Virus record (IMG/VR): IMGVR_UViG_3300009135_000001 | Coordinates: 11,255 to 75,254 of that record | From: a virus | Reading direction: 5' to 3' (one strand) | Length of the DNA: 64,000 bases | Translations under genes and position numbers: made by a program | The notes under the pieces: generated by a model | The model's input: the letters and a program-made list of their open reading frames with translations, nothing else | Told to the model about the DNA's origin: nothing | Database searches by the model: none | In this document: piece after piece, positions 11,206 to 51,243 of the stretch | How positions within the stretch are numbered: position 1 is the first letter of the stretch | How the letters are laid out: every line of letters starts with the position of its first letter

Positions 11206-12437
11206 TGGCCGTTTCATTCGACGGGCCAACCCTGACAATCACCCTCGAATCCGGTGTGACGTCGGTCGAGTGGACTACTGTTTATTCTGACTGGAAGCGG
11301 TGGGTGCAAGACGGTGGTGGACATGCTTACCCCCCAGCATTCAGGCCAGATGGTGGCTCACCTCTATCCGCTGTAATCGACCAAGGTAGATACTACTTCC
11401 TTCAAAACAATCTCGGCTGGCGAATTAAGCCACCCGAAGAAGACATAACTATCCAAGCATTAGGTAACTTGGCCCTTGAAGATGCTGATCTGCCTTCGAT
11501 TCTACCAACGACTGGCGCTTTCACCGCTGCGATACTCGGCCTCCAGCCTATAACGCAGGGTGTCATACCAAGCATGAGGACCAACCTCGAATTCAATACG
11601 TTCCAAGGCGCGGTTTGTATCGACATGGCGAACAGAACTGGTAACGCGATAGCGGGAACCGGTTACTCTGGCGACGACCGTATTGGTACGCGCCGAGCAC
11701 CTTGCGACAACCCGGAAGATGCTCTGACTATAGCCAACCGCGAGGGCTTGCACCAATTTATCATCGTATCGGATTTCGATGGGGCGGGTTACAACACAGA
11801 TTTCAGCGACGGCTTTGCATTCATAGGCGACTCACCATTTATTGACTTCGATATGACCAGTTCCCTTTCAATGAACAATTGCGACATTCACAACCTTAAA
11901 GTCGGCGGGGAATCTGATGGAGTCAACTTGTTAGAATCCTGTACTATCAACGTCGTTAGCGGTTTCAACGGAACCATGCGCAGTTGTGAGTTGGATGGGA
12001 CAATTGCCGTCAACGGTAGCTGCCGTATCCTTGACTGCTTCTCAGCGCGTACTGGTTTGGGTTACAGCACTATCACTGGGATCGCCAGTTTCAACGTACA
12101 GATTCGTAATCTGCGCGGCTCCATCGGGCTCGAAGACATGGTCGGTGGCAACCACTCTATCGGTATCGGCGGTGAGGGTCGGTTAATAATCGAGGCGAGT
12201 TGTACAGGTGGAAATATCTTCGGGCGCGGCCAACCGTACGACGTGGACAACTTGGGTACCGCAACGTATGTCGACCAGACCGAGAGTAAGAAGAATACCC
12301 GTATGTACCAACGCATGGGTCTGGAAGTCGGACTCGATGTCATCAACAACGTCGATGGCAGCTACACCTTCGATGACGTAGTGGTAGGCGCATCGATCGA
12401 TGGTAGCGGAAACGTGACTCATAACAGGTCTGCCTAA
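11205..12437 (+). CDS. Putative structural protein with beta-helix-like middle region
   Basis: 410 aa; repeated small beta motifs (MNNCDIHNL, LESCTINV, MRSCELDG); TAATG coupling. Confidence 0.65.
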   Translation: MAVSFDGPTLTITLESGVTSVEWTTVYSDWKRWVQDGGGHAYPPAFRPDGGSPLSAVIDQGRYYFLQNNLGWRIKPPEEDITIQALGNLALEDADLPSILPTTGAFTAAILGLQPITQGVIPSMRTNLEFNTFQGAVCIDMANRTGNAIAGTGYSGDDRIGTRRAPCDNPEDALTIANREGLHQFIIVSDFDGAGYNTDFSDGFAFIGDSPFIDFDMTSSLSMNNCDIHNLKVGGESDGVNLLESCTINVVSGFNGTMRSCELDGTIAVNGSCRILDCFSARTGLGYSTITGIASFNVQIRNLRGSIGLEDMVGGNHSIGIGGEGRLIIEASCTGGNIFGRGQPYDVDNLGTATYVDQTESKKNTRMYQRMGLEVGLDVINNVDGSYTFDDVVVGASIDGSGNVTHNRSA

Positions 12438-37458: not shown

Positions 37459-37959
37459 TTAGTTGTCGAACCAGTAGACCATACGAATGTGGTCCATGTT
37501 TTGGGCGTCGATGATGTGGTTCCATTTGAGTTTGCGTTGGATGTGGGCATCAAGTGCGTTGTGCATTTCAGTAAGTGGTGAGTCTGCTCCGCGAAGTACG
37601 CGGTACTGTGCCGCCATGTGGCGAAACTCTGTGGCGGTACACCAGTTGGGTGAGTGTGCGTCGCAATCCCAGCGTTTGAATTCTGCTGTGATTTCAGGGC
37701 AACTGTCTTGTGGAAATCCTTTTTTTACGATGTAGGGGCCAGGTGCTTCGCCGCGTACTCCATCTGATAGAATGGAGAATTTTTCGTACCATCGGTTGTC
37801 GTCGAATTCTACAACTATGAATCGTTCGCCGTCGTATTCTTCGTCGCCGAGTTTGGTGTCGGGAATGAAGTAGTCGTTCTTTTCATAGAAGTCGAATGTT
37901 TCCCAGCGTTGTTTGTTCTCGTTGTATTTTTCGAGAAAGATGTGTATATCGCATCCCAT
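37459..37959 (-). CDS. Conserved phage hypothetical protein
   Basis: MGCDIH start and RMVYWFDN end are typical of a widespread phage family. Confidence 0.75.
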   Translation of the reverse strand: MGCDIHIFLEKYNENKQRWETFDFYEKNDYFIPDTKLGDEEYDGERFIVVEFDDNRWYEKFSILSDGVRGEAPGPYIVKKGFPQDSCPEITAEFKRWDCDAHSPNWCTATEFRHMAAQYRVLRGADSPLTEMHNALDAHIQRKLKWNHIIDAQNMDHIRMVYWFDN

Positions 37960-37983: not shown

Positions 37984-38077
37984 TTGAACGGCCTGGACTC
38001 GAACCAGGGTCTTCTCACTCCAGGCACTTTATTACCCTTCACTGCGCAGACGTGTTTCCCGCTTACACCACCGCTAT
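37984..38077 (-). ncRNA. tRNA-like RNA with expanded anticodon arm and no encoded CCA
   Basis: D-stem GTGT/ACAC; T-arm CCTGG-TTCGAGT-CCAGG; 5-bp acceptor AGCGG/CCGTT; about 27 nt in place of the anticodon loop. Confidence 0.55.
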
Positions 38078-38128
38078 TTGGGCTACGGGCCCGTACGAGC
38101 TAACGCCCATTATGGCGCGCCCGCACTT

Positions 38129-38353
38129 TCATTTGGTGGGGTGTCTGCTCAAGCTGTCTTTCAGGTAAGTGACTTGGCGGGCACGCTTTGCTAACGCTTT
38201 GTTAGCGCGTTGGACTTCACCCAGGTATATGAGTGACTGAAGGCGATAACGATCGGCGAGAACAGCATTTTGAGTTGCCAGGTTCTTGTAATAGCCGAGT
38301 TGGCCTTCGTAATTGGGTGTTTCAGGTTTTTCAGTGAGTTCAAGGTGTTTCAT
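38129..38353 (-). CDS. Hypothetical coiled-coil protein
   Basis: ORF in the early operon. Confidence 0.55.
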   Translation of the reverse strand: MKHLELTEKPETPNYEGQLGYYKNLATQNAVLADRYRLQSLIYLGEVQRANKALAKRARQVTYLKDSLSRHPTK

Positions 38354-38537
38354 GATTATTCCTGTAGGTTGTACTTGTTGTAGAGATCAGCTATTTGCTG
38401 ACGGTGTTGAGATGTGAGAGGTTGGTCAACTTCGATGGAACGAAGGTAGTCGAGAAGATCTTTGTCAGGATCTGTGATGAATGGTGAGTTGTTGAGAGAG
38501 TGGTATATGTGGTTGATTTTGTCGATTTCTTCGATGT

Positions 38538-38866
38538 TCATTTTTTGAGACCTCTAAGATATTCTTCAAGTCGCCGTTGTTTAAACACCCATATGTATTC
38601 TACGTCGATGGGTGCGGCGGGGTTTTTAACAGCTGATTGTGGATAGTGCCGCATGCCGTCTTGCCATAGAATTCGTTCGTATGGGTCAGGTTTGTTGGCC
38701 CAAAAGACTGTTTCTACTTCTTTGGCGGGTATTTCGAGTGCGTTTTTACCGTGCTTGCGAACTCCAGGTACTAGCCGGAGTGAGGCGCGTAAGGCTTCCA
38801 CATGTTTGGGTTTGACGATAGCTAGATGATCGTCTGTTTCTTGGTGTTTTAGGTATTTCTCAAACA
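38538..38866 (-). CDS. Hypothetical protein
   Basis: ATG just after the tRNA-Asn 3' end (MFEKYLKH). Confidence 0.55.
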
Positions 38867-38870
38867 TGGT

Positions 38871-38945
38871 TGGCTCCAGAGCTTGGGATCGAACCAAGGA
38901 CAGCCGACTTAACAGGCCGGGGCTCTACCTCTGAGCTACTCTGGA
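38871..38945 (-). tRNA. tRNA-Asn(GTT)
   Basis: Full cloverleaf TCCAGAG...CT-GTT-AA...TTCGATC...CTCTGGA-G-CCA. Confidence 0.92.
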
Positions 38946-39015
38946 TCGGATTGAATTTGTTCCCCTGAGGACTTAAACCTCTCCCACCGCGAGGACCACA
39001 GTGTTTGCAAACTAT

Positions 39016-39483
39016 TTAGCAGAATTTTTCCCACGAAAAGCAGTTACTGTTTTCTGGATTGCCACGTCCGCCATCGCCGCCACCAGATGAACCAGCGCCA
39101 GAGCCAGAGCCACCAGAGCTACCAGACCCACCGCCGCTTCCACCAGAGGATGAACCGCCAGAGTTACCACCACCAGAATTGCCGCCACCGCTATTACCGC
39201 CGTTGCCATTGCCATTTCCGTTGCCGTTTCCATTGCCGTTACCTCCGCCGTTGTTCCCACCTTGGGAGCCGCCAGCGTTGCCGTTGTTAGAATCGTTGCC
39301 TTGGTTGCCAGGGCCTGAGTTGCCGTGACCATTGCCGCTGTTACCGCCGCCATGACCATGACCGTTACCTTGACTTCCGCCATTGACACCACCAGCACCG
39401 TGGCCGTTGTTGTCGCCTTTGCCAGCTAAGACTGGTTGTGCGCATAGCAGGAGTGCTACGAACATTGCATATACTAATTTCAT
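39016..39483 (-). CDS. Secreted Gly/Asn/Ser-rich low-complexity protein
   Basis: Signal peptide MKLVYAMFVALLLCAQPVLA, (GN)n and GGNS repeats, C-terminal CFSWEKFC. Confidence 0.75.
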   Translation of the reverse strand: MKLVYAMFVALLLCAQPVLAGKGDNNGHGAGGVNGGSQGNGHGHGGGNSGNGHGNSGPGNQGNDSNNGNAGGSQGGNNGGGNGNGNGNGNGNGNGGNSGGGNSGGGNSGGSSSGGSGGGSGSSGGSGSGAGSSGGGDGGRGNPENSNCFSWEKFC

Positions 39484-39507
39484 TGGATTTCTCCTGTTGT
39501 GTAAAAT

Positions 39508-39580
39508 TGGCGAAGCGTGAAGGGTTCGAACCTCCTCGTTTCGGTTTTGGAAACCTAACCGTCCCAAGACTGTACGCTCC
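39508..39580 (-). tRNA. tRNA-Trp(CCA) with shortened D-arm
   Basis: Acceptor GGAGCGT/ACGCTTC, loop TT-CCA-AA, T-arm and CCA present; D-arm only GTC-TTGG-GAC. Confidence 0.7.
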
Positions 39581-39584
39581 AAGT

Positions 39585-39655
39585 TGGTAGCGGAGGGGGG
39601 TATCGAACCCCGCTCACCACAGGATATGAACCTGAGTGTACGCCCGTTCCCCGCG
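39585..39655 (-). tRNA. Degenerate tRNA(CAT) with essentially no D-stem
   Basis: CGCGGGG acceptor with 1:72 mismatch (fMet-like), loop TT-CAT-AT, T-loop TTCGATA, encoded CCA. Confidence 0.6.
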
Positions 39656-39656
39656 A

Positions 39657-39947
39657 TTAATCGTCTAGCTTACCATACATGTGCATTGGTTGTGGGTCGA
39701 CTGGTGTGTTTTCCAGTTCTTTGCGAGCGAATTCTTCCTGAATGTCCAGGACATGCCGTGCTTTGGCGATGTCTTCGATGTGTTGTTCGAAGGTGCCTTT
39801 GTGGCGGCGCAGGTATTTGTCGACTTTGCAATACACAGCGGCTTGAAGCCCTGCATAACCAAAGTTGTTGTATGTTGCTTCGAGCGGCTGGACTTTCATG
39901 TTTTTGTAGTGCCCGCCACCAATTTGTTCTTTCAGAGGTGATGTCAT
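39657..39947 (-). CDS. DUF3310-family protein
   Basis: QIGGGHYK..QP..KYL.R..EDIAKARH motif. Confidence 0.75.
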   Translation of the reverse strand: MTSPLKEQIGGGHYKNMKVQPLEATYNNFGYAGLQAAVYCKVDKYLRRHKGTFEQHIEDIAKARHVLDIQEEFARKELENTPVDPQPMHMYGKLDD

Positions 39948-40595
39948 TTAGTGCGTTTCCGGTTGTCGAGGATTTTCATCGCTCGGGTGATTGAGTGGGC
40001 TACAGCCTGACGGTTGAACACTTCTGCCCGCCCCACAGTGTTGACGTGGGAGTCCAGGAACTGCTGGAGCTCATAGTCGACTGTTTCTCCGTCTTCAACC
40101 GGCACAACGAACTCGATGTTGTAAACGATGCTGGATTGTTCGGCTGGGGAGAGGGGAGTGTATTTAGTAATTTTTGGGGTAGGCATAGGACGTGGACCTT
40201 TTGGTTGTAATGTATTTGATAGCGTCCTATCTCATGGACGCGGGATTGGCGACACTCAGTGAAGTGCATTGTACGCTTATCTCTGTGTAATTCAACTGTC
40301 GGGTCGCTTGCGAGTAATACTATGAGTGTGTACCAGATCATTGCGTTTCACAATATGTGTAGTTAGCAGGATCGGTCCAGCAGATTGTTTGCTTGGGTTT
40401 GGCGGGGTATTCGTACTGATAGACGTGTTCGCAGTGCTGATACCCTTCGTCATCAGTCCAGCAGACTTGGGCTCCGTAGCATGCGGTTGACATTGCCATC
40501 AGTGCTATCAGTATTAGGCTTTTCATATTTCTCTTTCCTGCGATATTTGGTGCGATCGCGATGCGTTTGAGTGAGGCGTGTGGTCTTGCCTTTCC

Positions 40596-40880
40596 TTACA
40601 GTACTCTTCGGAGGGTTTTTAGGCATTTGCTTAGCACCTCGATGTTGTGTTCGGCAGTTACAGCATTCTGTTTGTGCTCGATGACCAGGTGTTGCAGCTG
40701 GCTGATGATGTAGCGGGCTGTATCCTTCGTACCTTCGAGAGCTCGTCTGTCTGCATAGCTCTCATGGCATTGTGCTGTGTACCGTTCACGAAGTGCTTGG
40801 TGCCGTGTCACTAGGTTCTCGATCTCGAACTTCATTGTTTCGAGGTAATCCTTGCGCTTTTCGGGAGTATCGAGGTCCAT
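40596..40880 (-). CDS. Hypothetical coiled-coil protein
   Basis: ORF in the early operon. Confidence 0.55.
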   Translation of the reverse strand: MDLDTPEKRKDYLETMKFEIENLVTRHQALRERYTAQCHESYADRRALEGTKDTARYIISQLQHLVIEHKQNAVTAEHNIEVLSKCLKTLRRVL

Positions 40881-41272
40881 TACAGCAACCCGCGCATGTA
40901 CTCAAGTAAGTACACTTTCGGCGCGATGAATATGAATAGGGCGTCGACCAAGAATATGAGTATGCCGCAAGCTATGAATATGCCTGAGAGTACCCATTTG
41001 AAGAAGGTTAAGAAGAACTCTTCGTCGCTGCCGTGATGTTCGCCGTCGCCGAGATATGCGGTTACTTTACCCCAAAAGAACCAAGCTGCTCCTATGAAAA
41101 CAGTGGCCAGGAATAAGTTCTTTGAGAAGTGCCACATCAGCAGTTGTTCGATAACTTCGGGCAGTTCGGCTGATAGGAAGTTGATAGCGGTGTCAGCGCC
41201 GTCGATGGTTTTGTCGATCAACGCTGCTAGTGCTTCGTTCAACGGATCAGGTGTTGTTTTCTCCTCGCTCAT
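40880..41272 (-). CDS. Membrane protein (two TM)
   Basis: ELPEVIEQLLMW and APKVYLLEY pattern of a common phage membrane family. Confidence 0.7.
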   Translation of the reverse strand: MSEEKTTPDPLNEALAALIDKTIDGADTAINFLSAELPEVIEQLLMWHFSKNLFLATVFIGAAWFFWGKVTAYLGDGEHHGSDEEFFLTFFKWVLSGIFIACGILIFLVDALFIFIAPKVYLLEYMRGLL

Positions 41273-41579
41273 TTTCTAATTCCTCTATAAGTTTACGAAG
41301 GCCCACTACAAAGAGTGGACCGGGGTCACCGGACTCACCAGTGAACACAGATGCGGGGTATTTCTCCAGGAACTTCTTCGTGATCTCCACGAACTCGTTG
41401 AAGTTATACTCACGCGTCAATAATTCCTGAATATGGCGAATCTGAGCACAGCGGATGTACTCACTCCGCTCTTCTTTCCATATGACGACCTCGTCTTCTT
41501 GTAGTGGCGCATGGCCACGCAGGTTCTCCCTGCTCAGCGTGACGAGGTCTTTCCATTCTTCTGAGTAGTCGTGTTTCAT
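41247..41579 (-). CDS. Hypothetical protein
   Basis: ORF in the early operon. Confidence 0.55.
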   Translation of the reverse strand: MKHDYSEEWKDLVTLSRENLRGHAPLQEDEVVIWKEERSEYIRCAQIRHIQELLTREYNFNEFVEITKKFLEKYPASVFTGESGDPGPLFVVGLRKLIEELENERGENNT

Positions 41580-42236
41580 CTATCTTACCAGGTGGCTGAC
41601 TTGTACGGTGATCAGTTCATCGACCTCAACACCAGTGTCGCGGTCAAACTCCCAACCACCACGTGCGATGATCAGGTCGTCAGTGACTCTCTCGACAACG
41701 AGGTCCATGGGTATCGTGCCAGCGAGCATCCGATGAATGGTGTCGCCAGCCTGCACGTCACGGAAGCTCATGTGGTGTGGACTTCAGCGATACCGCGTTG
41801 GCGTGTGATGCTCTTGACGCCCATTGCGCTGTTGAAGTTCTTGTCGACCCAGGCCATGACTGCGGTCCAGTCATCTGCGACGACGTTGTATGTGTTGCCA
41901 GATAGGGCTTCGACTTTGAATAGGCGTTGGGGGGTTTTGTCTTTGCTCATGATAGTATTAGATATCCGTGGATGATGGTTGAAAGGATGAAGGCCCAGCC
42001 GATGATCTTGGCTTGGATGCCTGGCATGTTGTCGGGATCACTTATAGCCATGATGACTGCTGTGATGATGACTATGATGAATGTAAATATCTGCATTTTT
42101 GGTCTCCAGACCGTGTCACTTCCAAAGCGACACAGTACGTTGTACGAGGTACTTTGCGTCCAGGTTTCGATGAAAAGCTCGAATCCTAAATGCGAATGAT
42201 TCTCAATAAGTGCTGTTTTGTGCACACTTTGAGGGG

Positions 42237-42482
42237 GTGCTGTGCCACTTCATGGCAGGGTGATGTTCTCACTTTGTTCTCACCCTCGCGGTGGAACGCG
42301 AGCATTATTGGGGGGGTAAGTCGTTGTAAAGTAACGAATTACTAAATATATACATTTTAGGTACAAAGTACAAAGTACTAAGTACGAAGTGCTGTGCCAC
42401 TTTGCCTCCATGTTGGCCCACAGAAATTAAAAAACTGTAAATATAATTTCCGTGGCCAAACATAGGAGTAAAGTGGCACAGC
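42237..42482. repeat. Iteron-like repeats; putative replication origin or regulatory region
   Basis: GTGCTGTGCCACTT at 42237 and 42389, inverted AAGTGGCACAGC at 42471, heptamer array 42358-42392, AT-rich tracts. Confidence 0.6.
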
Positions 42483-42484
42483 TG

Positions 42485-43180
42485 TTAAAGGTCATCGATA
42501 TCCCAAATCTCAGCCTGACCGTGGTCAAGAACTAGGACTTCCTCGGTACGACCAAGGCAATCGATATTGTAGGAATTTCCATTTTGGATAATTCCCGGAA
42601 GCGCGTCGATAGGCCGATGATTTGAATGACCAACGATCTGTGGCGTCGCAGTCGGTTCAAATTCTCTCCACCAGTCACACCAGTAGAGACCACCGACAGC
42701 ATCTCGCCCCCCTCGTGCACGACCAATTTGGTCATAATCTTCTGCATCGAGATATTCCTCCAGGGTTTGGCCAGAGGCGTCAAGCAGTTTCTGCGAGACA
42801 CCGGCATGAGAAATCAGCCAGTCATCGACCCAGATGTAATCAAGCAGGGGGCTCATATCAACTGTTTGGTGAAGTTGATCGGCTAACTCATAAGAGTAGC
42901 CAGAGCACTGCATGTGGCGATCTTGGTATGACCGCTCATGATTACCTTGGAGAGCCCATACACGATCGGGCTGGGCGCGTACAGCACCTAGCACTAGGTT
43001 GATTGTATGAAGCTGCTCGACCATCTTACGATCGAAGCTGTCCAGGTAGTCGCCGATGAAGACGATCTTGTGTTCAGACTTGAGGACTCTCTCCACTAGT
43101 TCGTACTGACCGTGGAGATCCCCCACCACTACTAGCTTCTTCATTTTCTTTCTCCTTCTGACGTTTGGTGTAGTTTTCAT
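42485..43180 (-). CDS. Calcineurin-like metallophosphoesterase
   Basis: GDLHG, GDYLD, GNHE and SHAG motifs; true start probably MKKLVVVGD. Confidence 0.9.
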   Translation of the reverse strand: MKTTPNVRRRKKMKKLVVVGDLHGQYELVERVLKSEHKIVFIGDYLDSFDRKMVEQLHTINLVLGAVRAQPDRVWALQGNHERSYQDRHMQCSGYSYELADQLHQTVDMSPLLDYIWVDDWLISHAGVSQKLLDASGQTLEEYLDAEDYDQIGRARGGRDAVGGLYWCDWWREFEPTATPQIVGHSNHRPIDALPGIIQNGNSYNIDCLGRTEEVLVLDHGQAEIWDIDDL

Positions 43181-43544
43181 ACCCAGCTTGTTGCATGAGC
43201 ATGAAGAATGTGTATGCAGCTGCTAAGCCGTACCAGCCAGGGTACAGTAGCATGCCGATCATACCCATATCATATGTGATATCGACCCATCGGGGTAGAT
43301 AAGTGAATGTCGCTGTTTCTTTCTTGTAGACCTCATCAACACATTTGTCACTGAATAAGGCCAGAGCCAAGATTGCGAAGAGTATTACAACAAATGTTAT
43401 AATATGCTCAGCGGGTTTGTACCCCTCGAATACAGCTAGGTAGGTAGTACCAGCGAACAAGCCGTTGATGAAAGCCCATCGGGATAGTGCTTTGAACTTT
43501 TTCATATTTACTTCCTCATTTTGAGTAATTGAGTGCGTGGCCAC
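43074..43544 (-). CDS. Multi-pass membrane protein
   Basis: Several hydrophobic segments; true start probably MKKFK. Confidence 0.6.
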   Translation of the reverse strand: MATHSITQNEEVNMKKFKALSRWAFINGLFAGTTYLAVFEGYKPAEHIITFVVILFAILALALFSDKCVDEVYKKETATFTYLPRWVDITYDMGMIGMLLYPGWYGLAAAYTFFMLMQQAGYENYTKRQKEKENEEASSGGGSPRSVRTSGESPQV

Positions 43545-45339
43545 CTTCGGCCGCTAACGGGAGGTCTTGGGCCCAAGCTGGTGGCGTGGACATGACTTCG
43601 TTGATGTATGCCGTAACTCCCGGTGCGTCTTCTGTACGACATATTGCGATGATTTCGTCGTGTGTACTGCTAACCACTCGGATTTTGCATTTCTGATCGA
43701 CGGCATAGATTTGCTCAGCAATAATGACGCGGGCGAGGGCCTGGATGATGTTCTCAAGGATTATGCCTCCGTAGAGTTTCTTGCCATTGTCGTAAACCCA
43801 AGACGCTTCTTCGTCGTCCCATCGTAGGTCATTATAATGGAGGCACATGCCATTTGGGAGCTCGATAGCACCATTTCCGAAGATGAGACCGTTGAATTCG
43901 TAAGGCGTCTCACTTTTAATACGTGGTATAAGGTCATTGAGCCTATTCCACATGCTTTGAGTCTTGCTGTTTGTGTGCCGCCATTTGTTAACTGCATCTT
44001 GGGCCTCTAACTGAGTGAGATGGACAGGGGGAGTACCCATGAAGCCAAGAGCTGCATTAACACGCAACTTCCGCCAACCCATATTATAGCCAAGAGCCAG
44101 TTCAAGCATCTTGCCAAAGAACCGTTCGTGAATATGATTTTGTTTATTGCACTCGTAGCCATAGTGATTGCTAGCAGCATATAGATAAACGTCGCCACCG
44201 GCGCGAAGTATGTTGAGCTTGTTATGTTCACCACAGAACCAGGCGTTAAGCCTAAGCTCGATTTGTGCACTGTCAACAACAACAATGGAATAACCCCGAG
44301 GAGCATAGATAGAACGCCTAAGTACACCACTGTTAGGATTATGTGGGTTGAATCGCGGTAAGTTCTGGACATTTAAACCATCCGCACCTGACCATCTGCC
44401 AGTGTGCGCTCCGTAGTAGTTGAGTGGCATGGGCATTGTGCCCTTGATGCCTATTTCATAAAATGCCAAGGCGCGGGTCAGCTCAATGGTTGATTTGACC
44501 ACACGCCTAGCATCCCAAACCTCCTTAAACTCAGGATGGTCAGCCTGGAGCTCACGATACTTGAGGTCGTCCTTTGCTAAGGCAAAAGTCTGTTTCTCTG
44601 TCGTTTTGCTCGTCTTCATGGGTATCTTCATACCCTGGCTTTCAATCCATGCAGCGAACTGAGGGTTGGAAGACAACACTGTCTTGGACACTGGACATAT
44701 AGATAGTAGCTCGTCACGTTGATCTTCGAGGCGTTGTATTTCGCCTTCCAGTAGATCTGTATCTAACCGGAGGACTGGCTCGGCTGCCATCCTTGTGGTG
44801 AGGGACGACAGATAGCGTTCTTGTTCAGGTAGTACATCTTTTAACAGCTCGTACAGCTGCCAGGTTAGTTCTACATCTTGGATGCAGTACCGTTTGAGGA
44901 TTTGGTTTTCTTCTTCCGTAAGAACTCTCTTACCTTTCGTTTGATCGAGCCCGGTAAGTTTACCTTGTGTGAGCCCGAGTATGCGTGTCGCACAATTCTC
45001 CAGAGTTTTTCGTTCTGAAGCTGGCAGAAGTACGTTAGCCACTGATTTTGTGTCGAAGTACTGACAAGGCCTATGCCCATAAATGTCGTTGAGGATGAAT
45101 CCATCAAAGTTGAGGTTATGACCCACGAGGATGGAGGTACTCCATGAAATGCTAGACAGCGCATCGCGTATTGCCTCTTCACCGTAAGTATATCGGGTAG
45201 GTTGGCTGCCTTGTTTGATTCCAACACCCTGCACCTTGAATCTAGCGTCTCGTATATAGATTGCGGTCTTGATCTTTCGGAGTGAGTAGTCTTTGTCATA
45301 GTATGTTTCAAAGTCCAGAGTTACTGGTTGTAATTGCAT
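43516..45339 (-). CDS. Family A DNA polymerase with 3'-5' exonuclease domain
   Basis: DFET (ExoI), HN..FD (ExoII), YCIQD (ExoIII); HTGRWSG; motif A DSAQIELR; motif B R...K...L...Y; motif C THDE. Confidence 0.95.
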   Translation of the reverse strand: MQLQPVTLDFETYYDKDYSLRKIKTAIYIRDARFKVQGVGIKQGSQPTRYTYGEEAIRDALSSISWSTSILVGHNLNFDGFILNDIYGHRPCQYFDTKSVANVLLPASERKTLENCATRILGLTQGKLTGLDQTKGKRVLTEEENQILKRYCIQDVELTWQLYELLKDVLPEQERYLSSLTTRMAAEPVLRLDTDLLEGEIQRLEDQRDELLSICPVSKTVLSSNPQFAAWIESQGMKIPMKTSKTTEKQTFALAKDDLKYRELQADHPEFKEVWDARRVVKSTIELTRALAFYEIGIKGTMPMPLNYYGAHTGRWSGADGLNVQNLPRFNPHNPNSGVLRRSIYAPRGYSIVVVDSAQIELRLNAWFCGEHNKLNILRAGGDVYLYAASNHYGYECNKQNHIHERFFGKMLELALGYNMGWRKLRVNAALGFMGTPPVHLTQLEAQDAVNKWRHTNSKTQSMWNRLNDLIPRIKSETPYEFNGLIFGNGAIELPNGMCLHYNDLRWDDEEASWVYDNGKKLYGGIILENIIQALARVIIAEQIYAVDQKCKIRVVSSTHDEIIAICRTEDAPGVTAYINEVMSTPPAWAQDLPLAAEGGHALNYSK

Positions 45340-45645
45340 TTAGTCTGCCCAAATATAGTGAATCTGATAGTTATCCCCCTCGGGTTGTTTCTCATTGTTG
45401 AACTTCCAGTCATGTACGAAACAGGATGCTGCTGATACGCAATCTAGGTTGGTGTACTCACTGTTATTATACACGAGCCTGGCAGGTATTAAACCAGTAC
45501 TGTGGTCGCCGTCATCGTCATACTTGACACCAAACTTCTCATCGCCAAGCAAACGCCAGTCAGCAACTATTTTTTGACGGATACTCACACTGCACCACCA
45601 CTGCAAGTTCCAATTGCAATACAGAATGTCCATATGGCTACCCAC
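45340..45645 (-). CDS. Hypothetical protein
   Basis: Directly upstream of the polymerase gene. Confidence 0.55.
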   Translation of the reverse strand: MGSHMDILYCNWNLQWWCSVSIRQKIVADWRLLGDEKFGVKYDDDGDHSTGLIPARLVYNNSEYTNLDCVSAASCFVHDWKFNNEKQPEGDNYQIHYIWAD

Positions 45646-46050
45646 CCCACTGACTCTTGGAGCTTCTGGATTCCCCGGGCTATACGTTCGAGTTCCCGGG
45701 CTTTGGTAGCTTCGGCTGCGATTTGTTGGGGGTCCATGGGTGCCTCCTGAGCAAAAAAAATGACGCTACCAGTGAAGGTAGCGCCGAAGTGAGGCTAGTG
45801 GTAGCCCCAGGCAGAGTAACAACGGTCTTTCTCCTCGTCTTCAGGAGAGCGATATACACCGTCTGCACCGTTAGTAGCAGGATCGAAGGTCTCGAATTTG
45901 TGATCTCCGAGTGCGTTCAGCAGTTCAGAGGCTTCAGCCTCATCTGTGGTGCTGATGGTATGCCCTGATGGGCCGATGAATTCATAGATCATGTGATCTC
46001 CAATGTATTATGGAAATGATGGGGAGCACCTTACGATGCTCCCCGTTGTC

Positions 46051-46863
46051 CTAGTCTTCCTCGTTAATGGGGAAAACCTGTGACTCGATGACCGAAAGCT
46101 CCTCATGAGCTTCAAGTATCAGTTTAACCTGACCAGCCTCCTTGGCACGTACGGCGTCGTAGAAAGCACCGTATTGGTTAGTTGTGGCTCCTGGATCTCC
46201 AAGTGCCCATACCATCGGACGAAGGACGTCCTTGAGGACAAGAATGTCTCCCGGGCTGACTTTGGCCATTTCGGAAGCGGGGCAATCGATCATGCCAATT
46301 ACCGCCTTTTCCATGTCGGCTTGGTTCAGCCAGTCGGTCTTGTAGCTGACAAATGTCTCAGCGATGACCTTTTTAACGCCAGCATCATCAGTAGCCGCAG
46401 TAAGGGCTGCGAGTGCTTCGGAATCTGAACGGTTGGTAACTCCGTTGCAGAGGCGTTTGCAGGCATTCATGATTGACTCCTGCATGTAGGTGGGTGAGCT
46501 CGGAACGAACTCGTAATCCAGAGCCAGTGAGATCAGAGCGAGTGCAATTGCTCCGCCATCACGTTCATCTCGTTCGTACTTCGGTGCTGACAGTACAGAT
46601 GACTCTGAGGCCTGCGTCATCCAGCCGCCCTCGGACTGTGTGAGTTCACCAGCGGCAGCACGTCGGTTAGCGAAGAAGGCTTCACCTTGATCGTTACGCG
46701 CTTTCCAGGCTGCTGCGTTGATACCTGCACGGAACAGCTGGAAGCTGAGGCTGCGTTTGGCCAACGGTGAGTCGTGGAAGATGGGGTGGATGAGGTCGTC
46801 ACCAAGCTGTGTGAAGTGAACTTCGGCAGGCATGTGAGCGTTTACGTTGGTATTGTCGTTCAT
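46051..46863 (-). CDS. Hypothetical early protein
   Basis: Strongly biased codons; GGAG SD before MNDNT; followed by hairpin 46021-46044. Confidence 0.7.
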   Translation of the reverse strand: MNDNTNVNAHMPAEVHFTQLGDDLIHPIFHDSPLAKRSLSFQLFRAGINAAAWKARNDQGEAFFANRRAAAGELTQSEGGWMTQASESSVLSAPKYERDERDGGAIALALISLALDYEFVPSSPTYMQESIMNACKRLCNGVTNRSDSEALAALTAATDDAGVKKVIAETFVSYKTDWLNQADMEKAVIGMIDCPASEMAKVSPGDILVLKDVLRPMVWALGDPGATTNQYGAFYDAVRAKEAGQVKLILEAHEELSVIESQVFPINEED

Positions 46864-46963
46864 GGGATTCTCCATTGTTGAACGTTAAGTATCAATCCGA
46901 AGGATCGATTTCATGGGTAAAACCAGTGGACGAGCCTGCGAGGCCTGTCCACCGGTAGTTCAG

Positions 46964-47185
46964 TCATTTTGGTCCTTCGATGACTTCTTGCAGTTGATTG
47001 TAAGCAGAGACTAGCTCTTCGATATCTACTACTGTGCCCTGCTGGTCTAGCTCGATATTGATGCTTTGCGGGGTGTAGATGTGGATGCCATGACAACCGT
47101 TGTCGACGGTAGTGCCATGTACCCCGATAGTGATGTCAGGGTATGTATCTTTGCTGAGAGTGTACGGTACGCTAACAGATTTCAT
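46964..47185 (-). CDS. First gene of the minus arm, hypothetical
   Basis: AAGGAG SD before ATG at 47185. Confidence 0.65.
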   Translation of the reverse strand: MKSVSVPYTLSKDTYPDITIGVHGTTVDNGCHGIHIYTPQSINIELDQQGTVVDIEELVSAYNQLQEVIEGPK

Positions 47186-47671
47186 GTTAACTCCTTAGTC
47201 AGTGAGAATGAGGTAGTACCACATCATGTGCTATGAAACTGTAAGACACACAATATGTTGTGGTATGGGCTAGGGCCTGGTACAGCATGCAATTAGTACG
47301 CTATAGCAGCGCCCAAGAGCACGCCTACTGGGTACGCCGAGACGATGATCCATAGTACGATGAACGTGGTACTGCGTACGTAGTGTATAGTGCTATGTGA
47401 CATGGTATTACTCCTGTTGTGGGTGAGTTCATGATATATACCAGTTGCTGAGCTTGCGAGGCACTGCGCACGTGGCACTGTGTACATCGTGTGTAGAGGA
47501 ACGTTTGGGGCCCCATATTGGCGTTGTACTTTGAACTTGGTACGGTGTACATCGGAATCGGTGCGGAGTCGGAAATCTGGGACAGGGGTATGTGGAATAT
47601 GGACGACCAGAACGCATATTTCGCACGAAAAAAATTTTTTGGATATTTTTGGGTATTTTTTTGGGTATCGC

Positions 47672-47700
47672 TTGACATATGTATAGGAAATCCCTATATT
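47672..47700 (+). promoter_or_regulatory. Sigma70-type promoter
   Basis: TTGACA-17 nt-TATATT, preceded by phased T-tracts at 47636-47662 (UP-element-like). Confidence 0.8.
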
Positions 47701-47745
47701 GTATGCATGACTTAGATAACTAGACAGAAAAACCCGTTTCTTCGA

Positions 47746-48150
47746 GTGAAATTGAAAGACCTCGCCCATGAGGCTCGAATGATTCGAATAGAAGAGACCA
47801 GGGCTAATAAAAGTCACAACTACCAGCTCCAAAACGAATTACATGCACACAGGGTCGGACCTTTGCGTTCCCACACCCGTGAGACCTTGCTCTCCTACAT
47901 GTACTTGCGTGGTTACCCCTACGATGCCGTGGAGGTCACTGGTAGTAAGGAGATATCACCCACAGGAAAGAAAAACATCCGCCGCATGTGCAAAAAGTAC
48001 GGCGGAGTAGAAATGACGCTCGATGAATGGATTTCGGGTAATCGATTAAGGCGGGGTAGCTCAGGAGCACAGAGCGCCATTAACTTGGAGGTCGTAAGTT
48101 CAACTCTTACCCCCGCCACCAAATTTGCCTCGTTAGCTCAGTCTGGTTAG
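47746..48150 (+). CDS. Conserved phage protein whose frame runs into the tRNA cluster
   Basis: LKDLAHEARMIR..HR..LRG..KYG pattern; TAG stop lies in the D-loop of the CUA tRNA. Confidence 0.6.
   Translation: MKLKDLAHEARMIRIEETRANKSHNYQLQNELHAHRVGPLRSHTRETLLSYMYLRGYPYDAVEVTGSKEISPTGKKNIRRMCKKYGGVEMTLDEWISGNRLRRGSSGAQSAINLEVVSSTLTPATKFASLAQSG
48050..48121 (+). ncRNA. tRNA-like RNA with 2-nt D-loop and degenerate anticodon arm
   Basis: Perfect acceptor GGCGGGG/CCCCGCC, T-arm GTAAG-TTCAACT-CTTAC, ACCA end; D-arm GCTC-AG-GAGC. Confidence 0.65.
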
Positions 48151-48204
48151 AGCGCCGCGCACTAAACGCGGATGTCGGAGGTTCGAATCCTTCACGAGGC
48201 ACCA
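48127..48204 (+). tRNA. tRNA with CUA (amber) anticodon and non-canonical A33
   Basis: Complete cloverleaf: GCCTCGT/ACGAGGC; GCTC/GAGC; CCGCG-CACTAAA-CGCGG; GGAGG-TTCGAAT-CCTTC; ACCA. Confidence 0.8.
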
Positions 48205-48208
48205 ATTT

Positions 48209-48253
48209 TATACCCGATCGGGTATATTCTCACTTTATACCCTTGCGGGTATA
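48209..48253. promoter_or_regulatory. Two 18-bp palindromic operator-like sites
   Basis: TATACCC-GATC-GGGTATA (48209) and TATACCC-TTGC-GGGTATA (48236). Confidence 0.6.
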
Positions 48254-48381: not shown

Positions 48382-48882
48382 ATGACAAAACAATTGGTAG
48401 TAAAAAAAGACGTTGAAACAATGCTCGCCGATTTAACGGACATGCAACGTGGATACGCAGAAGCCCGGTTACACGGCCTTTCTCCACTTGACGCGGCTAA
48501 GGCAGCAGGATTCAGTCACCCATCAATACAATGTCACGCATACGAGAAACACCCGAAGATCTCTCCGATTATCAGTATGGCTACTTCAGCCAGCTTGGAA
48601 CGCTACCAGCTCTCCAGAGACGATGTAGTGAGTGGTTTCATGGACGCTGTGAGCGCGGCGGGGTCGAGTACCGAACTTACAGCAGCCTGGCGAGAAATTG
48701 GGAAGATGTTAGGTCACTACGCTCCGGAGCAACACGAGCACCGAGTCGCAGTCGAGAATATGACTTTGAACAAGCTGGAGACGATGTCGGACAGGGACTT
48801 GGCGGAGCTCGCAGAAATGGACGAATTTACTTTACCGAGGGATCACGAGTTAGTAGCGAAGTACGAGGTACTTGAGGAATGA
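48382..48882 (+). CDS. Terminase small subunit
   Basis: LTDMQRGYAEA..AAKAAGF HTH pattern; EIGKMLG; precedes TerL. Confidence 0.8.
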   Translation: MTKQLVVKKDVETMLADLTDMQRGYAEARLHGLSPLDAAKAAGFSHPSIQCHAYEKHPKISPIISMATSASLERYQLSRDDVVSGFMDAVSAAGSSTELTAAWREIGKMLGHYAPEQHEHRVAVENMTLNKLETMSDRDLAELAEMDEFTLPRDHELVAKYEVLEE

Positions 48883-49139: not shown

Positions 49140-49435
49140 GTGATGCGTATATAAAGAAGTATGAGAAAAACCATTCTGCCCTCAGGCGAGCGCCTGTTGA
49201 CGAACTACCGAACAACTGCGGACCAAAGTCGCGTAAGCGGGCTAAGCCTTATAAGATCGAGTCGCGTTGGACGTTATTTGACTTCGACCGTGATTGGTCT
49301 ACCCATAATCGCTATCGAACTGCTAAAGCCAGAGACCAAGCCCTCCGCAAGCTGCGACGTGACGAAGTACTGCGTACCGAGTGGATTAAACAACAGACAG
49401 GCAGGACTAGGCGCTCCTGCGTCGAATATCGATGA
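49136..49435 (+). CDS. Basic hypothetical protein
   Basis: Coupled ORF. Confidence 0.55.
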   Translation: MSDAYIKKYEKNHSALRRAPVDELPNNCGPKSRKRAKPYKIESRWTLFDFDRDWSTHNRYRTAKARDQALRKLRRDEVLRTEWIKQQTGRTRRSCVEYR

Positions 49436-51243
49436 CTGATGCTCTCGTTTGCAAAACTTGTGGGTTTACCAGCACGCAGATCAACAAATTTGGTTACGCG
49501 AAAGATATCTGCTCTACATGTAAATCTAAAGCAGATTCTCTGGCACTTAAAAGTAACGCAGCCAAGCGTCGTAGCGACGTCGATAAGGCAAGCGCACGAA
49601 AGGCAGCTAGGAAACTTGCAGCTTCCCAAAAGCGCAAAGCTGCCGTTACAAAACGTAAGGCTGAAAAGCAGAAAGCAAAAGACGCTGTTAAGGTTGAGCG
49701 CGCCGCCGTACGCCAGGTTACCGCCTCTAATGCGAGAATTAACATCGCGAAAAGAGAGCTGGCGATCAGACACCTGTCTCGACAGCATATGCTTCCATTC
49801 GTACTACGCATGGAGCCCGATGACTATCTTCCGGGGTGGGTGCATAAAGATATATGTCAACGGCTGGAGCAGTTTGAGAAAGATATCCTTGCAAAGAAGT
49901 CTCCACGACTTATGTTGCAGATGCCACCTCGGCATGGGAAATCTCAGCTCGCGTCTGTAAACTTCCCCGCATGGTACCTCGGACGGAACCCTAAACACGA
50001 AATTATAAGTGCGACGTACGCAGGATCGCTTGCGAAGGACTTCTCCAAAAAAGTAAGGGGGTTGATGCGTGAACCACGATTCAAACAAGTATTCCCAAAA
50101 TGCAACCTTAACAAAGACTCTCAGAACATCGACGGATGGAACACGACCGTCGGAGGCAGCTATGTACCTGCGGGCGTTGATGGTGGCATCACTGGTAAGG
50201 GAGCCCATTGTCTTATCATCGATGACCCTGTCAAAAACGCTGAGGAGGCCGAGTCGGCAACCCAGCGTGCGAGCGTACAGAGCTGGTATAGCTCGACGGC
50301 GTATACACGGCTTGCCCCTGGTGGAGGCGTCCTCATTATCCAAACTCGCTGGCATGACGACGACCTGAGTGGCTGGCTTGAAAACAAGATGCACGCTGGA
50401 GACGGGGAAAACTGGGAAATCGTCCGGTACCCTGCAATCGCGCTTAAAAATGAGCGTTATCGTAACAAGGGTGAAGCGCTTCACCCGGAGCGCTACGACG
50501 CAAACGCCCTTACAAGAATTGAAAGAGCTGTTGGACCTAGAGTGTGGGACGCTCTCTACCAGCAGCACCCAGTCGCAGAAGACGGAACCTACTTCACCAA
50601 AGACATGATGCACTACTATACGGGCAGCCCACCGGCCCGTATGCATTACTATGCTGCATGGGACTTTGCCATTGGTAAACTCGATCGAAACGATTATACT
50701 GTAGGCATCACCGTAGGCGTGGATATGGAAGACAACATATGGGTTGTCGACTGTCGGCGCGGAAGGTGGGATGCGTTTGAGATTGCTGAACAAGTAGTCG
50801 ATATGCACAAAGAATACGACGCTCATGTGACCGGGATAGAACGCGGTCAGTTGAGTATGGCTATTGGGCCATACCTGGATAAGAGGATATCGGAAGAGAA
50901 GGCGTACAGCTTGGCTCTGAAAGATCTCCCACCAGGGAAAAGAGATAAGGAATCCCGCGCCCGCGTAATACAGGGCCGGATGAGACAGGGCAAGGTGTTC
51001 TTTCCGAAGAACGCGCTCTGGATGACAGAAATGAAAGAGGAAATGATGAAGTTTCCTCTAGGCCAGCACGACGACATGGTTGACGCGCTGGCATACATAG
51101 GCTTACTCTTGCAAGATATGTCGCCACCACCGGAGTTGAAAGACCCAGACCCTTGGCAAAAGGGATGGAGGAAGCGCATGAAAACACAACTGACCGTACC
51201 ACGTGCAGGGATAGCGCACGGCGGCTCATTTATGAGACGATAA
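49432..51243 (+). CDS. Terminase large subunit with N-terminal zinc-finger/basic extension
   Basis: MPPRHGKS Walker A, IIDDPVK Walker B, QTRWHDDD, WDFA and HDDMVDA nuclease motifs. Confidence 0.95.
   Translation: MTDALVCKTCGFTSTQINKFGYAKDICSTCKSKADSLALKSNAAKRRSDVDKASARKAARKLAASQKRKAAVTKRKAEKQKAKDAVKVERAAVRQVTASNARINIAKRELAIRHLSRQHMLPFVLRMEPDDYLPGWVHKDICQRLEQFEKDILAKKSPRLMLQMPPRHGKSQLASVNFPAWYLGRNPKHEIISATYAGSLAKDFSKKVRGLMREPRFKQVFPKCNLNKDSQNIDGWNTTVGGSYVPAGVDGGITGKGAHCLIIDDPVKNAEEAESATQRASVQSWYSSTAYTRLAPGGGVLIIQTRWHDDDLSGWLENKMHAGDGENWEIVRYPAIALKNERYRNKGEALHPERYDANALTRIERAVGPRVWDALYQQHPVAEDGTYFTKDMMHYYTGSPPARMHYYAAWDFAIGKLDRNDYTVGITVGVDMEDNIWVVDCRRGRWDAFEIAEQVVDMHKEYDAHVTGIERGQLSMAIGPYLDKRISEEKAYSLALKDLPPGKRDKESRARVIQGRMRQGKVFFPKNALWMTEMKEEMMKFPLGQHDDMVDALAYIGLLLQDMSPPPELKDPDPWQKGWRKRMKTQLTVPRAGIAHGGSFMRR

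Follow-up and report, generated by a model that had tools for sequence, protein, structure and literature searches.

Transfer RNA-shaped elements of an uncultured marine phage: probable decoding tRNAs with slimmed D arms and two putative non-decoding look-alikes

Background

Transfer RNA (tRNA) genes of phages are usually counted with standard gene finders and explained by codon usage or, lately, by escape from nucleases. The present analysis concerns six tRNA-shaped elements in a stretch of viral DNA of 64,000 nucleotides (nt), hereafter the window, which covers positions 11,255 to 75,254 of the IMG/VR record IMGVR_UViG_3300009135_000001. The record is 75,483 nt long, is rated complete by CheckV and derives from an uncultured marine phage. 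The six elements are real, five of them are aberrant, and they do not form one family. They comprise a canonical tRNA-Asn(GUU), a tRNA-Trp(CCA), an initiator-type element with the anticodon CAU, a tRNA with the anticodon CUA, and two look-alikes lacking a normal anticodon arm, here called E1 and TL-2. An earlier, sequence-only reading had treated the aberrant elements together, as RNAs with intact acceptor and T arms and rebuilt D and anticodon arms which might act as tRNA decoys or as processing signals. The coordinates of all features are collected in Table 1.

Table 1. Features of the locus and of its surroundings (positions in the window)
Feature	Position	Strand	Remarks
E1	48050..48121	plus	7-bp acceptor, normal D arm, T arm, A73-CCA; Rfam
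TL-2	37984..38077	minus	lower 5 acceptor bp, D arm GUGU/ACAC, T arm CCUGG/CCAGG, no CCA
tRNA with anticodon CUA	48127..48204	plus	loop CACUAAA (A33); ARAGORN, Rfam
tRNA-Asn(GUU)	38871..38945	minus	canonical; ARAGORN, Rfam
tRNA-Trp(CCA)	39508..39580	minus	reduced D arm (3 bp + UUGG), loop UUCCAAA; ARAGORN
Initiator-type tRNA(CAU)	39585..39655	minus	acceptor CGCGGGG, C1·U72 mismatch, A73-CCA, loop UUCAUAU, 13-nt D region with 2-bp mini hairpin
Open reading frame	47779..48150	plus	conserved part 47779 to ~48046, ~90 residues
Hairpin GGGC-CCGUA-GCCC	38080..38092	minus	directly 5' of TL-2, all four lineages
Gene phrog_10141	37459..37959	minus	always directly downstream of TL-2; motifs GCDIH, DAHS, FDN
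Candidate sigma-70-like promoter, TTGACA-17-TATATT	47672..47700	plus	11/12 matches, consensus match only; upstream of the open reading frame, E1 and the CUA tRNA
Inverted repeat TATACCC-N4-GGGTATA, two copies 27 nt apart	48209..48253	plus	between the CUA tRNA and the small-terminase-like gene; z -4.9
Small-terminase-like protein	48382-48882
Large terminase	49432-51243
Family-A DNA polymerase (PolA)	43516-45339	minus

Detection of the elements

With default settings, ARAGORN reported four genes: Asn-GUU, Trp-CCA, E1, to which it assigned a two-base 'anticodon', and the CUA tRNA. The gathering threshold of the Rfam tRNA family RF00005 (29 bits) was exceeded by the CUA tRNA (62.4 bits), tRNA-Asn (61.6) and E1 (48.5) and was missed by Trp, CAU and TL-2. 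Under relaxed Rfam settings the best match of Trp was tRNA-Sec (25.4 bits, E 0.19), and no match was returned for the CAU element, for TL-2 or for two putative tRNA fragments proposed at 38078-38108 and about 38960-38985. Relaxed ARAGORN called TL-2 a 94-nt type-II-like tRNA, and the CAU element was detected solely by the metazoan-mitochondrial mode of the same program, as a D-loop tRNA. A T-arm motif scan combined with relaxed ARAGORN found no seventh tRNA-shaped element anywhere in the window.

ARAGORN, Rfam and the T-arm scan together place the six elements where the sequence-only reading had put them, and most of its description of their shapes was borne out. tRNA-Asn is the sole fully canonical element; Trp does have a shrunken D arm, with a 3-base-pair (bp) stem and a 4-nt loop; the element at 48127-48204 does combine A33 with the anticodon CUA; the anticodon region of TL-2 is aberrant, its D and T arms being some 42 nt apart; and in four of the five aberrant elements the acceptor is still paired and the T arm and an encoded CCA are present. 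Two descriptions stood only in part. The CAU element, said to be without a D stem, does have a much reduced D region, in which a 2-bp mini hairpin is retained, and E1 does have an aberrant anticodon arm (12 nt), but not the 2-nt D loop ascribed to it, the Rfam alignment giving a normal GCUC/GAGC stem with a 9-nt loop. Of the two fragments, the supposed T arm at about 38960-38985 folds like shuffled sequence (z -0.16) and lacks Rfam or ARAGORN support, and the supposed tRNA 5' piece at 38078-38108 instead holds the small GGGC/GCCC hairpin kept beside TL-2. Nor are the anticodon arms of Trp and CAU rebuilt: they are intact and canonical. An anticodon stem of 5 bp bearing a loop of 7 nt, with U33 and purine 37, is found in Asn, Trp and CAU and is missing from the CUA tRNA (A33), from E1 (3 bp and a 6-nt loop) and from TL-2 (an extension of about 30 nt).

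Single ARAGORN '???' tRNAs with 2-nt or 4-nt anticodons were also seen in unrelated phages that carry 20-29 tRNA genes (L204:9026-9098, L209:7625-7697 and L207:3487-3555). An isolated aberrant tRNA is therefore no rarity in a phage array; what is unusual here is their proportion, five of the six.

Relatives and scope of the comparison

Among the GenBank phages searched there was no close relative, and the distant matches comprised only the tRNA-Asn and a Gly-rich gene. Scans of IMG/VR and the JGI metagenomes with PolA yielded one close genome, L001 (relatives are denoted by L-numbers), with 80% PolA identity, together with L083, a near-identical copy of L001, the short fragment L084, and about 160 distant relatives. 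Almost all of the latter are without tRNAs; L006 and L010 carry Trp and/or CAU tRNAs. The key comparison contigs came from searches with the proteins of three flanking genes, whose matches were then looked up in their contigs. The E1-CUA pair is present in L164, L174/L238, L241 and L244 and absent from L165-L172 and L180, which are relatives at similar distance; TL-2 and its neighbours are present in L245/L246 and L250, and a further copy of the CAU element lies in L175-L177. The tRNA-derived elements are thus patchily distributed within a lineage of aquatic podophage-like viruses, as is usual for phage tRNA genes.

DNA pattern scans were carried out as well. The TL-2 D-arm pattern recovered L001 and its copies only, plus one chance match, and the Trp anticodon-arm pattern gave chance matches only. 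A pattern taken from the 5' half of the CUA tRNA matched ordinary tRNA-Thr(CGU) genes of phages that carry large tRNA arrays, and the D-reduced CAU and E1 patterns had no match in viral or prokaryote genome collections.

Two look-alikes without a decoding loop

Comparison of E1 across five lineages shows an acceptor paired at 35/35 positions, with six of its seven pairs doubly changed, and a T stem paired at 25/25 with three double changes, which brings the pairs changed on both sides to nine. A73-CCA is kept in all five lineages and the GCUC/GAGC D arm in four. The proposal that decay is non-random finds its support in the comparison of the elements with relatives, not in the window alone. 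Where an anticodon arm would be expected, E1 has a mini hairpin of 3 bp and a 6-nt loop, which reads CCA-UUAACU-UGG in the window and CCG-UUAACU-CGG and CCG-UUAAUU-CGG in L241 and L244; the compensatory change from CCA/UGG to CCG/CGG indicates that this hairpin is a structure. The same region is occupied in L238 by a 5-bp anticodon stem with a 10-nt loop (20 nt), and L164 has no anticodon arm, 16 nt linking the acceptor to the T arm. The protein tails described below imply an armless E1 in two further homologues and a fourth size class in one. The acceptor sequence differs in nearly every lineage and has no conserved identity, and a search for an antisense target of the mini arm within the window returned only the arm itself. 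E1 resembles the CUA tRNA in L238 and L174, a likeness that suggests an old tandem duplication. Judged from these alignments, E1 cannot decode, and selection acts on its acceptor, T and D helices and on A73-CCA.

TL-2 was compared among four lineages (the window, L001, L245/L246 and L250). Its D arm is paired at 16/16 positions and its T arm at 20/20, the lower five acceptor pairs are kept, three of them with double changes, and a pyrimidine-pyrimidine mismatch stands at 2:71; RNAalifold marked 9 of 18 pairs as compensatory. The anticodon loop is replaced in the window by a short helix (H1, UCU/AGA), an internal loop (UGAA/GGA), a second hairpin (H2) and a linker, AGAC. Throughout the four lineages H1 is a covarying helix of 3-4 bp (UCU/AGA, GCUC/GAGC or UCCG/CGGA), the 5' side of the internal loop is invariantly UGAA and its 3' side GGA or GA, and H2 is a covarying hairpin of 4-5 bp with a free loop, followed by the linker AGAC(A). 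The small hairpin immediately 5' of TL-2 (Table 1) is replaced in L245 by GUGAG/CUCAC, again in a compensatory manner. In every lineage TL-2 lies 20-25 nt before the ribosome-binding site of the phrog_10141 gene, whose product is only 53-66% identical among the four; the more distant phrog_10141 homologues of L247-L249 have a different structure upstream. As far as the alignment can tell, TL-2 is selected for its acceptor, T and D helices and for a structured extension, and has no usable anticodon loop.

The identity of TL-2 as a transfer-messenger RNA (tmRNA) was considered and rejected: the ARAGORN tmRNA search returned none, and there is neither a conserved reading frame or stops nor a G3·U70 pair. 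The motif UAAUAA, which TL-2 carries in the window and in L001, has not been kept by L245 or L250. As for the neighbouring phrog_10141 protein, its structural model, although confident (predicted local distance difference test, pLDDT, 83.6), had no Foldseek match and a best VIA-align Z of 4.1, and a peptide-pattern scan with it found nothing. An RNase H-like layout, considered on account of strand order and D/H motifs, is unsupported, there being no fold match.

The notion that the aberrant elements do something other than decode finds support in E1 and TL-2, in which the acceptor, T and D helices are kept and the decoding loop is absent or dispensable, and not in Trp, CAU and CUA. Both of the roles that had been put forward, top-half mimic or RNase P/Z signal, are compatible with selected helices that lack a decoding loop.

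Probable decoding tRNAs

Orthologues of tRNA-Asn(GUU) were found in L001 and L245/L246. In the window its 3' end, GGAGCCA, also serves the next gene as a Shine-Dalgarno sequence (38868-38880, minus strand; ATG at 38867), so that processing of the tRNA would sever the ribosome-binding site from the mRNA.

The Trp tRNA of the window, L001, L006 and L250 has an acceptor paired at 28/28 positions, six pairs being doubly changed, a T stem paired at 20/20 and an anticodon loop that reads UUCCAAA or CUCCAAA. Its slimmed D arm is AGUC-UUGG-GAC in the window versus AGCC-AAGG-GGC in L001, a compensatory exchange of U-A for C-G, and L250 has a normal D arm. The CAU element, which adjoins Trp in four lineages, has an acceptor of the form CGCGGGG...C(U/C)CCGCU-A-CCA, and its 1:72 position is non-Watson-Crick in seven lineages out of seven (C·U in the window, L250, L175 and L246, G·A in L001, A·A in L006 and U·U in L010). 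The loop reads UUCAUAU or CUCAUAA, on an anticodon stem whose 5 pairs all covary through double changes. Across the four Trp and the seven CAU lineages the 7-nt loop, U33 and the anticodon are invariant.

The D region of the CAU element measures 13-15 nt in five lineages and forms a hairpin of at most 2-3 bp around a 4-nt loop. The pairings identified by eye are A9-U16/C10-G15 around GGGC in the window, A8-U17/G9-C16/C10-G15 in L250, CUU-AAUG-GAG in L175 and UUC-GAUG-GAG in L246; L006 and L010 have normal D arms. In L001 a GAGGU that follows the acceptor can pair with an ACCUC that precedes the T arm. Inspection by eye for such alternative pairing outside the anticodon stem found just a 3-bp covarying extension in the window and L250, and none in L175 and L246.

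The 5' strand of the CAU element's acceptor is identical to its counterpart in an E. coli tRNA-Met that has a CAU anticodon and occurs in about four copies per genome; this tRNA we take to be the initiator. A blastn search of the whole element against E. coli gave no match. The G-C triplet of initiator tRNAs at the foot of the anticodon stem is incomplete, the window and L250 having two such pairs (UCAGG/CCUGU) and only L001 having GGG/CCC.

Since the canonical anticodon loops are kept, Trp and CAU would be working tRNAs with slimmed D arms and not decoys. Asn-GUU, Trp-CCA and CAU are most likely all working tRNAs, the D arms of the odd ones having been inherited in slimmed form. The need for a Trp and an initiator-type tRNA, each of which serves one codon, is unexplained by codon usage.

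A further gene lies between the Trp and Asn tRNAs (39016-39483, minus strand) and encodes a signal-peptide-bearing protein extremely rich in Gly, Asn and Ser. It is not there in L001, and its DNA has a weak match in Agrobacterium phage Atu_ph04, to a gene annotated as a 'glycine-rich cell wall structural protein'.

The CUA tRNA was compared in five lineages. Its acceptor and T stems are paired at 60/60 positions with seven pairs doubly changed, a value reached by 0/500 column shuffles, and slid registers fall to 38-57% paired; the anticodon stem is paired at 24/25, with three double changes. The loop reads CACUAAA in the window and L241, UUCUAAC in L164, and has eight nucleotides in L244 and L238 (CCCCUAAU and CCCCUAAG, respectively), so that it counts 7 or 8 nt and position 33 is A, C or U. 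CUAA is invariant in all five and is implied by the C-terminal tails of three further homologues. The C before UAA is invariant even though it is the third codon base of an overlapping reading frame, which mildly favours selection on C34 and not just on the stop of that frame. The body of this tRNA resembles generic E. coli Arg, Lys and Val tRNAs, and its acceptor varies among lineages, with G3·U70 in the L244 copy and in no other.

The genome itself is not recoded, given that genetic code 11 leaves long open reading frames (ORFs) intact and that TAG ends 17 of the 92 frames in the greedy set (TAA 40, TGA 35). Neither an in-frame TAG nor a defined readthrough target was found in the window, and the four TAG-ending genes that are in frame with the next gene are UAGGAG ribosome-binding-site overlaps, a number not above chance. 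The CUA tRNA is most likely a weak reader of UAG, of uncertain amino-acid identity, in a standard-code genome. Trp, CAU and CUA are thus most simply understood as decoding tRNAs.

An open reading frame that ends inside the CUA tRNA gene

Immediately upstream of the pair, an ORF (Table 1) runs through E1 and lacks a stop of its own in 8/8 lineages, that is, in the window and in all seven database homologues, whose tails are in all 7/7 cases translated from the tRNA pair. In the window it stops at a TAG in the D loop of the CUA tRNA (48148-48150), and a TAA in the anticodon loop (48163-48165) is also in frame; the UAG of the D loop ends the ORF in the window and L241 as well, and the UAA of the anticodon loop ends it in L244, L238 and L164. 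On entry into the CUA tRNA, the first base of the tRNA is always the first base of a codon of the ORF, whose offset at the start of E1 is 1, 0 and 2 for the 72-, 82- and 51-nt E1 classes; the tail peptide is not conserved. The frame used is the open one through the three sequenced size classes of E1, the other frames being mostly stopped within E1. With 3-4 independent classes, the probability of such openness by chance is about 0.04-0.1, which makes the pattern suggestive only.

The conserved part of the ORF (47779-48046) returned no Pfam or PHROG family, no Atlas look-alike and no fold match (low-confidence model, pLDDT 66.8), and no description of an ORF ending inside a CUA tRNA gene was found. 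The inverted repeats beyond the tRNA, similar to others in L241 and L238/L174, may be a terminator or an operator of the late operon. In L164, the nearest of the relatives with an E1-CUA pair, an extra gene with HNH-endonuclease-like motifs (L164:1414-1917) stands between the CUA tRNA and the terminase gene, which suggests that homing endonucleases may move through this tRNA locus.

Further features of the genome

Relatives of the phage encode a P22-type portal. On the replication side of the window an intergenic gap holds a near-perfect hairpin of about 90 nt (42389-42485, plus strand), with sub-threshold Rfam matches to plant microRNA precursors (43 bits against a cut-off of 91). The adjoining gene (42485-43180, minus strand) encodes a calcineurin-like metallophosphoesterase whose PHROG matches include part of a 737-residue 'RNA ligase' family. 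A role in RNA repair is unsupported, as no ligase or kinase partner was found in the genome; searches of the 75-kb record for RNA ligase, RtcB, CCA-adding enzyme and tyrosine integrase families found none. The possibility that the elements are tRNA fragments of an attP site was likewise rejected, given the lack of a tyrosine integrase in the record and the presence of both 5' and 3' halves in the elements.

Discussion

Bacterial RNase P and the 3' processing enzymes recognise the 12-bp acceptor/T stack, the T and D loops and RCCA, and these are the features which E1 conserves. E1 and TL-2 also lie at gene borders inside operons, a position that favours a cis role in processing or coupling. Our leading interpretation, held tentatively and drawn from comparative sequence data, is that both are cis-acting modules of RNase P/Z-type processing or of regulation and that the other elements are decoders. 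They would act on polycistronic transcripts as substrates of host RNase P and of RNase Z or 3' trimming enzymes. TL-2 would direct a cut of the mRNA just upstream of the phrog_10141 gene and so set the 5' end of that gene's message, and E1 would release the adjacent CUA tRNA and part the upstream ORF from the stop borrowed inside it; either the ORF would then be translated or the tRNA pair would mature, but not both. The decoding tRNAs, Trp and initiator included, would probably compensate for host tRNAs that are lost or come under attack in the course of infection. Several observations weigh against this interpretation. TL-2 is without CCA and is mismatched at 1:72 and 2:71, which would weaken recognition by RNase P, and its conserved internal loop and hairpin are not explained by a plain processing signal, nor is the retention of A73-CCA by E1 in every lineage. 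Cutting an ORF from its sole stop would produce a non-stop mRNA and looks costly. The absence of U33 from the CUA tRNA in several lineages argues against efficient decoding. Finally, the comparison comprises 4-5 lineages per element, the alignments were made partly by hand, and kinship among the sequences inflates the covariation counts.

The rival that lies closest to the sequence-only reading regards E1, and perhaps TL-2, as stable top-half mimics which bind readers of the acceptor, the CCA end or the elbow (toxSAS, MenT nucleotidyltransferases, GNAT acetyltransferases) and thereby shield the tRNAs. E1 keeps the parts that such toxins read, namely the 7-bp acceptor, A73-CCA and the T arm, and an acceptor/T minihelix suffices as a substrate of the toxSAS FaRel2, which reads acceptor pairs 1, 2, 4 and 5 (10.1101/2024.07.05.602228). 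The variation of the E1 acceptor in almost every lineage would be expected if it tracked toxin specificities, but drift of a stem that needs only to pair explains it equally well. A strong promoter-like site lies upstream, yet each genome carries a single copy, signs of high dosage are lacking, and no genomic feature argues for a decoy; the tight and conserved linkage to particular neighbour genes suggests a cis role instead, and mimicry of a CCA end is beyond TL-2, which lacks CCA and is poorly paired at the top of its acceptor. On balance we consider such a decoy rather unlikely. A comparably low probability is given to a switch between translation and folding, in which ribosomes translating the ORF through E1 into the CUA gene unfold the pair, folding or cleavage of the tRNAs ends expression of the ORF, and E1 is the spacer or structure that sets the coupling, for example in the timing of an early regulator against the late operon. 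In its favour are the missing stop before E1 in all eight lineages, a frame that is open through 51-, 72- and 82-nt versions of E1 despite offsets of 2, 1 and 0, and a constant codon phase at entry into the CUA tRNA together with a non-conserved tail peptide; nonetheless, the few independent classes leave room for chance, as calculated above, junk C-terminal tails may be tolerated, the ORF belongs to no known family or fold and so has no known regulatory role, and TL-2 is not covered. Taken jointly, the bolder proposal that E1 and TL-2 are founding examples of tRNA-scaffold phage RNAs with a purpose beyond cutting, whether as toxin-neutralising mimics in trans or as an ORF-E1-CUA switch, is given a modest chance, somewhat above that of either version and well below that of cis processing. 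In the switch version, a protein gene would borrow its stop inside a UAG-reading tRNA gene, and translation, maturation and suppression would regulate one another.

Two simpler or stranger accounts fare worse. If the aberrant elements were functionless tRNA pseudogenes on their way out, stems would break as fast as loops, yet all acceptor and T pairs of E1 survive nine double substitutions, and TL-2 keeps four helices and a sequence motif beside a protein as divergent as that of phrog_10141. Neutral decay is thus disfavoured and appears improbable, even granting the aberrant tRNAs in the unrelated arrays of L204, L207 and L209, the patchiness of the tRNA content and the relatives without an E1-CUA pair. 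More improbable still are exotic decoders, whose 6- or 8-nt loops in E1 and CUA variants would read two- or four-base codons, for instance CCCCUAAU/G reading UAGG in a programmed frameshift. The 8-nt loops of L244 and L238 and the several TAG stops of the window that precede a G are what might be cited for them, but the CUA loop of the window has 7 nt, no gene in the window needs a UAGG frameshift, its TAG-G occurrences being UAGGAG ribosome-binding-site overlaps, and the E1 arm is lost in L164, with the same type of tail in two more homologues. Processing in cis by E1 and TL-2 beside decoding by the other elements accordingly remains the interpretation we prefer, with the reservations given above.

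In this one small phage, standard finders miss or mis-score half of the tRNA-derived genes, although these are clearly under selection. Two of the likely decoders have bodies thought to be restricted to organelles, a Trp tRNA whose D arm has just 3 bp and 4 nt and an initiator-type tRNA nearly without a D stem, which raises the question of how bacterial translation accepts slimmed D arms and whether the slimming allows escape from a host factor. In E1 and TL-2 the tRNA shape seems to have been reused for a non-decoding purpose, and their defined borders make the ideas of RNase P/Z cleavage, non-stop mRNA and toxin decoy testable with short transcripts.

Comparison with known systems

The CAU element shares with the bacterial initiator tRNA (E. 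coli metZWV/metY type) the CGCGGGG 5' strand, the open 1:72 position, A73-CCA and the CAU loop. It differs in having C1·U72 in place of C1·A72, two instead of three G-C pairs at the foot of the anticodon stem in the window, and a D arm reduced to a mini hairpin of 2-3 bp. Like the look-alikes, the tRNA-like domain of tmRNA combines an acceptor with a T arm and lacks an anticodon arm, but tmRNA carries a tag reading frame and G3·U70, neither of which is found in TL-2.

The species 1 and 2 stable RNAs of phage T4 are small, non-decoding products of a tRNA cluster, co-transcribed and co-processed with the phage tRNAs; they are likened to the look-alikes by description only, with no suggestion of homology. 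The t-elements of plant mitochondria are tRNA-like structures that direct the formation of mRNA 5' and 3' ends (PMC1920247). Their defining combination, acceptor and T helices kept and decoding lost, is found in both E1 and TL-2, which are similarly tRNA-derived and non-decoding, and the t-elements too stand beside protein genes and are thought to act via the tRNA-processing enzymes. They are, however, organellar and have mapped transcript ends, whereas E1 and TL-2 belong to a phage and are known from sequence; moreover, E1 keeps an encoded CCA and TL-2 has an additional conserved extension.

With the suppressor tRNA-CUA of recoded phages (crAss-like and others) the CUA tRNA shares a phage-borne CUA anticodon. 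Those suppressors belong to stop-codon-recoded phages, whereas here there is no recoding, U33 is replaced and the loop size is variable. Phage tRNAs with altered anticodon loops or shortened stems escape tRNA nucleases and can replace destroyed host tRNAs, according to two reports (PMC10264068; PMC12445682), and by analogy the Trp, CAU and CUA tRNAs may likewise be linked to escape from defence. In the T5-type (PMC10264068), PARIS (PMC11464382), retron (PMC11555353) and P2 OLD (PMC12445682) cases, the defence-escaping tRNAs have, as here, deviant anticodon loops or stems and include single-codon species (Trp, initiator) that are hard to explain by codon usage. Those tRNAs keep a standard cloverleaf, whereas in this phage it is the D arm (Trp and CAU) or position 33 and the loop size (CUA) that deviate.

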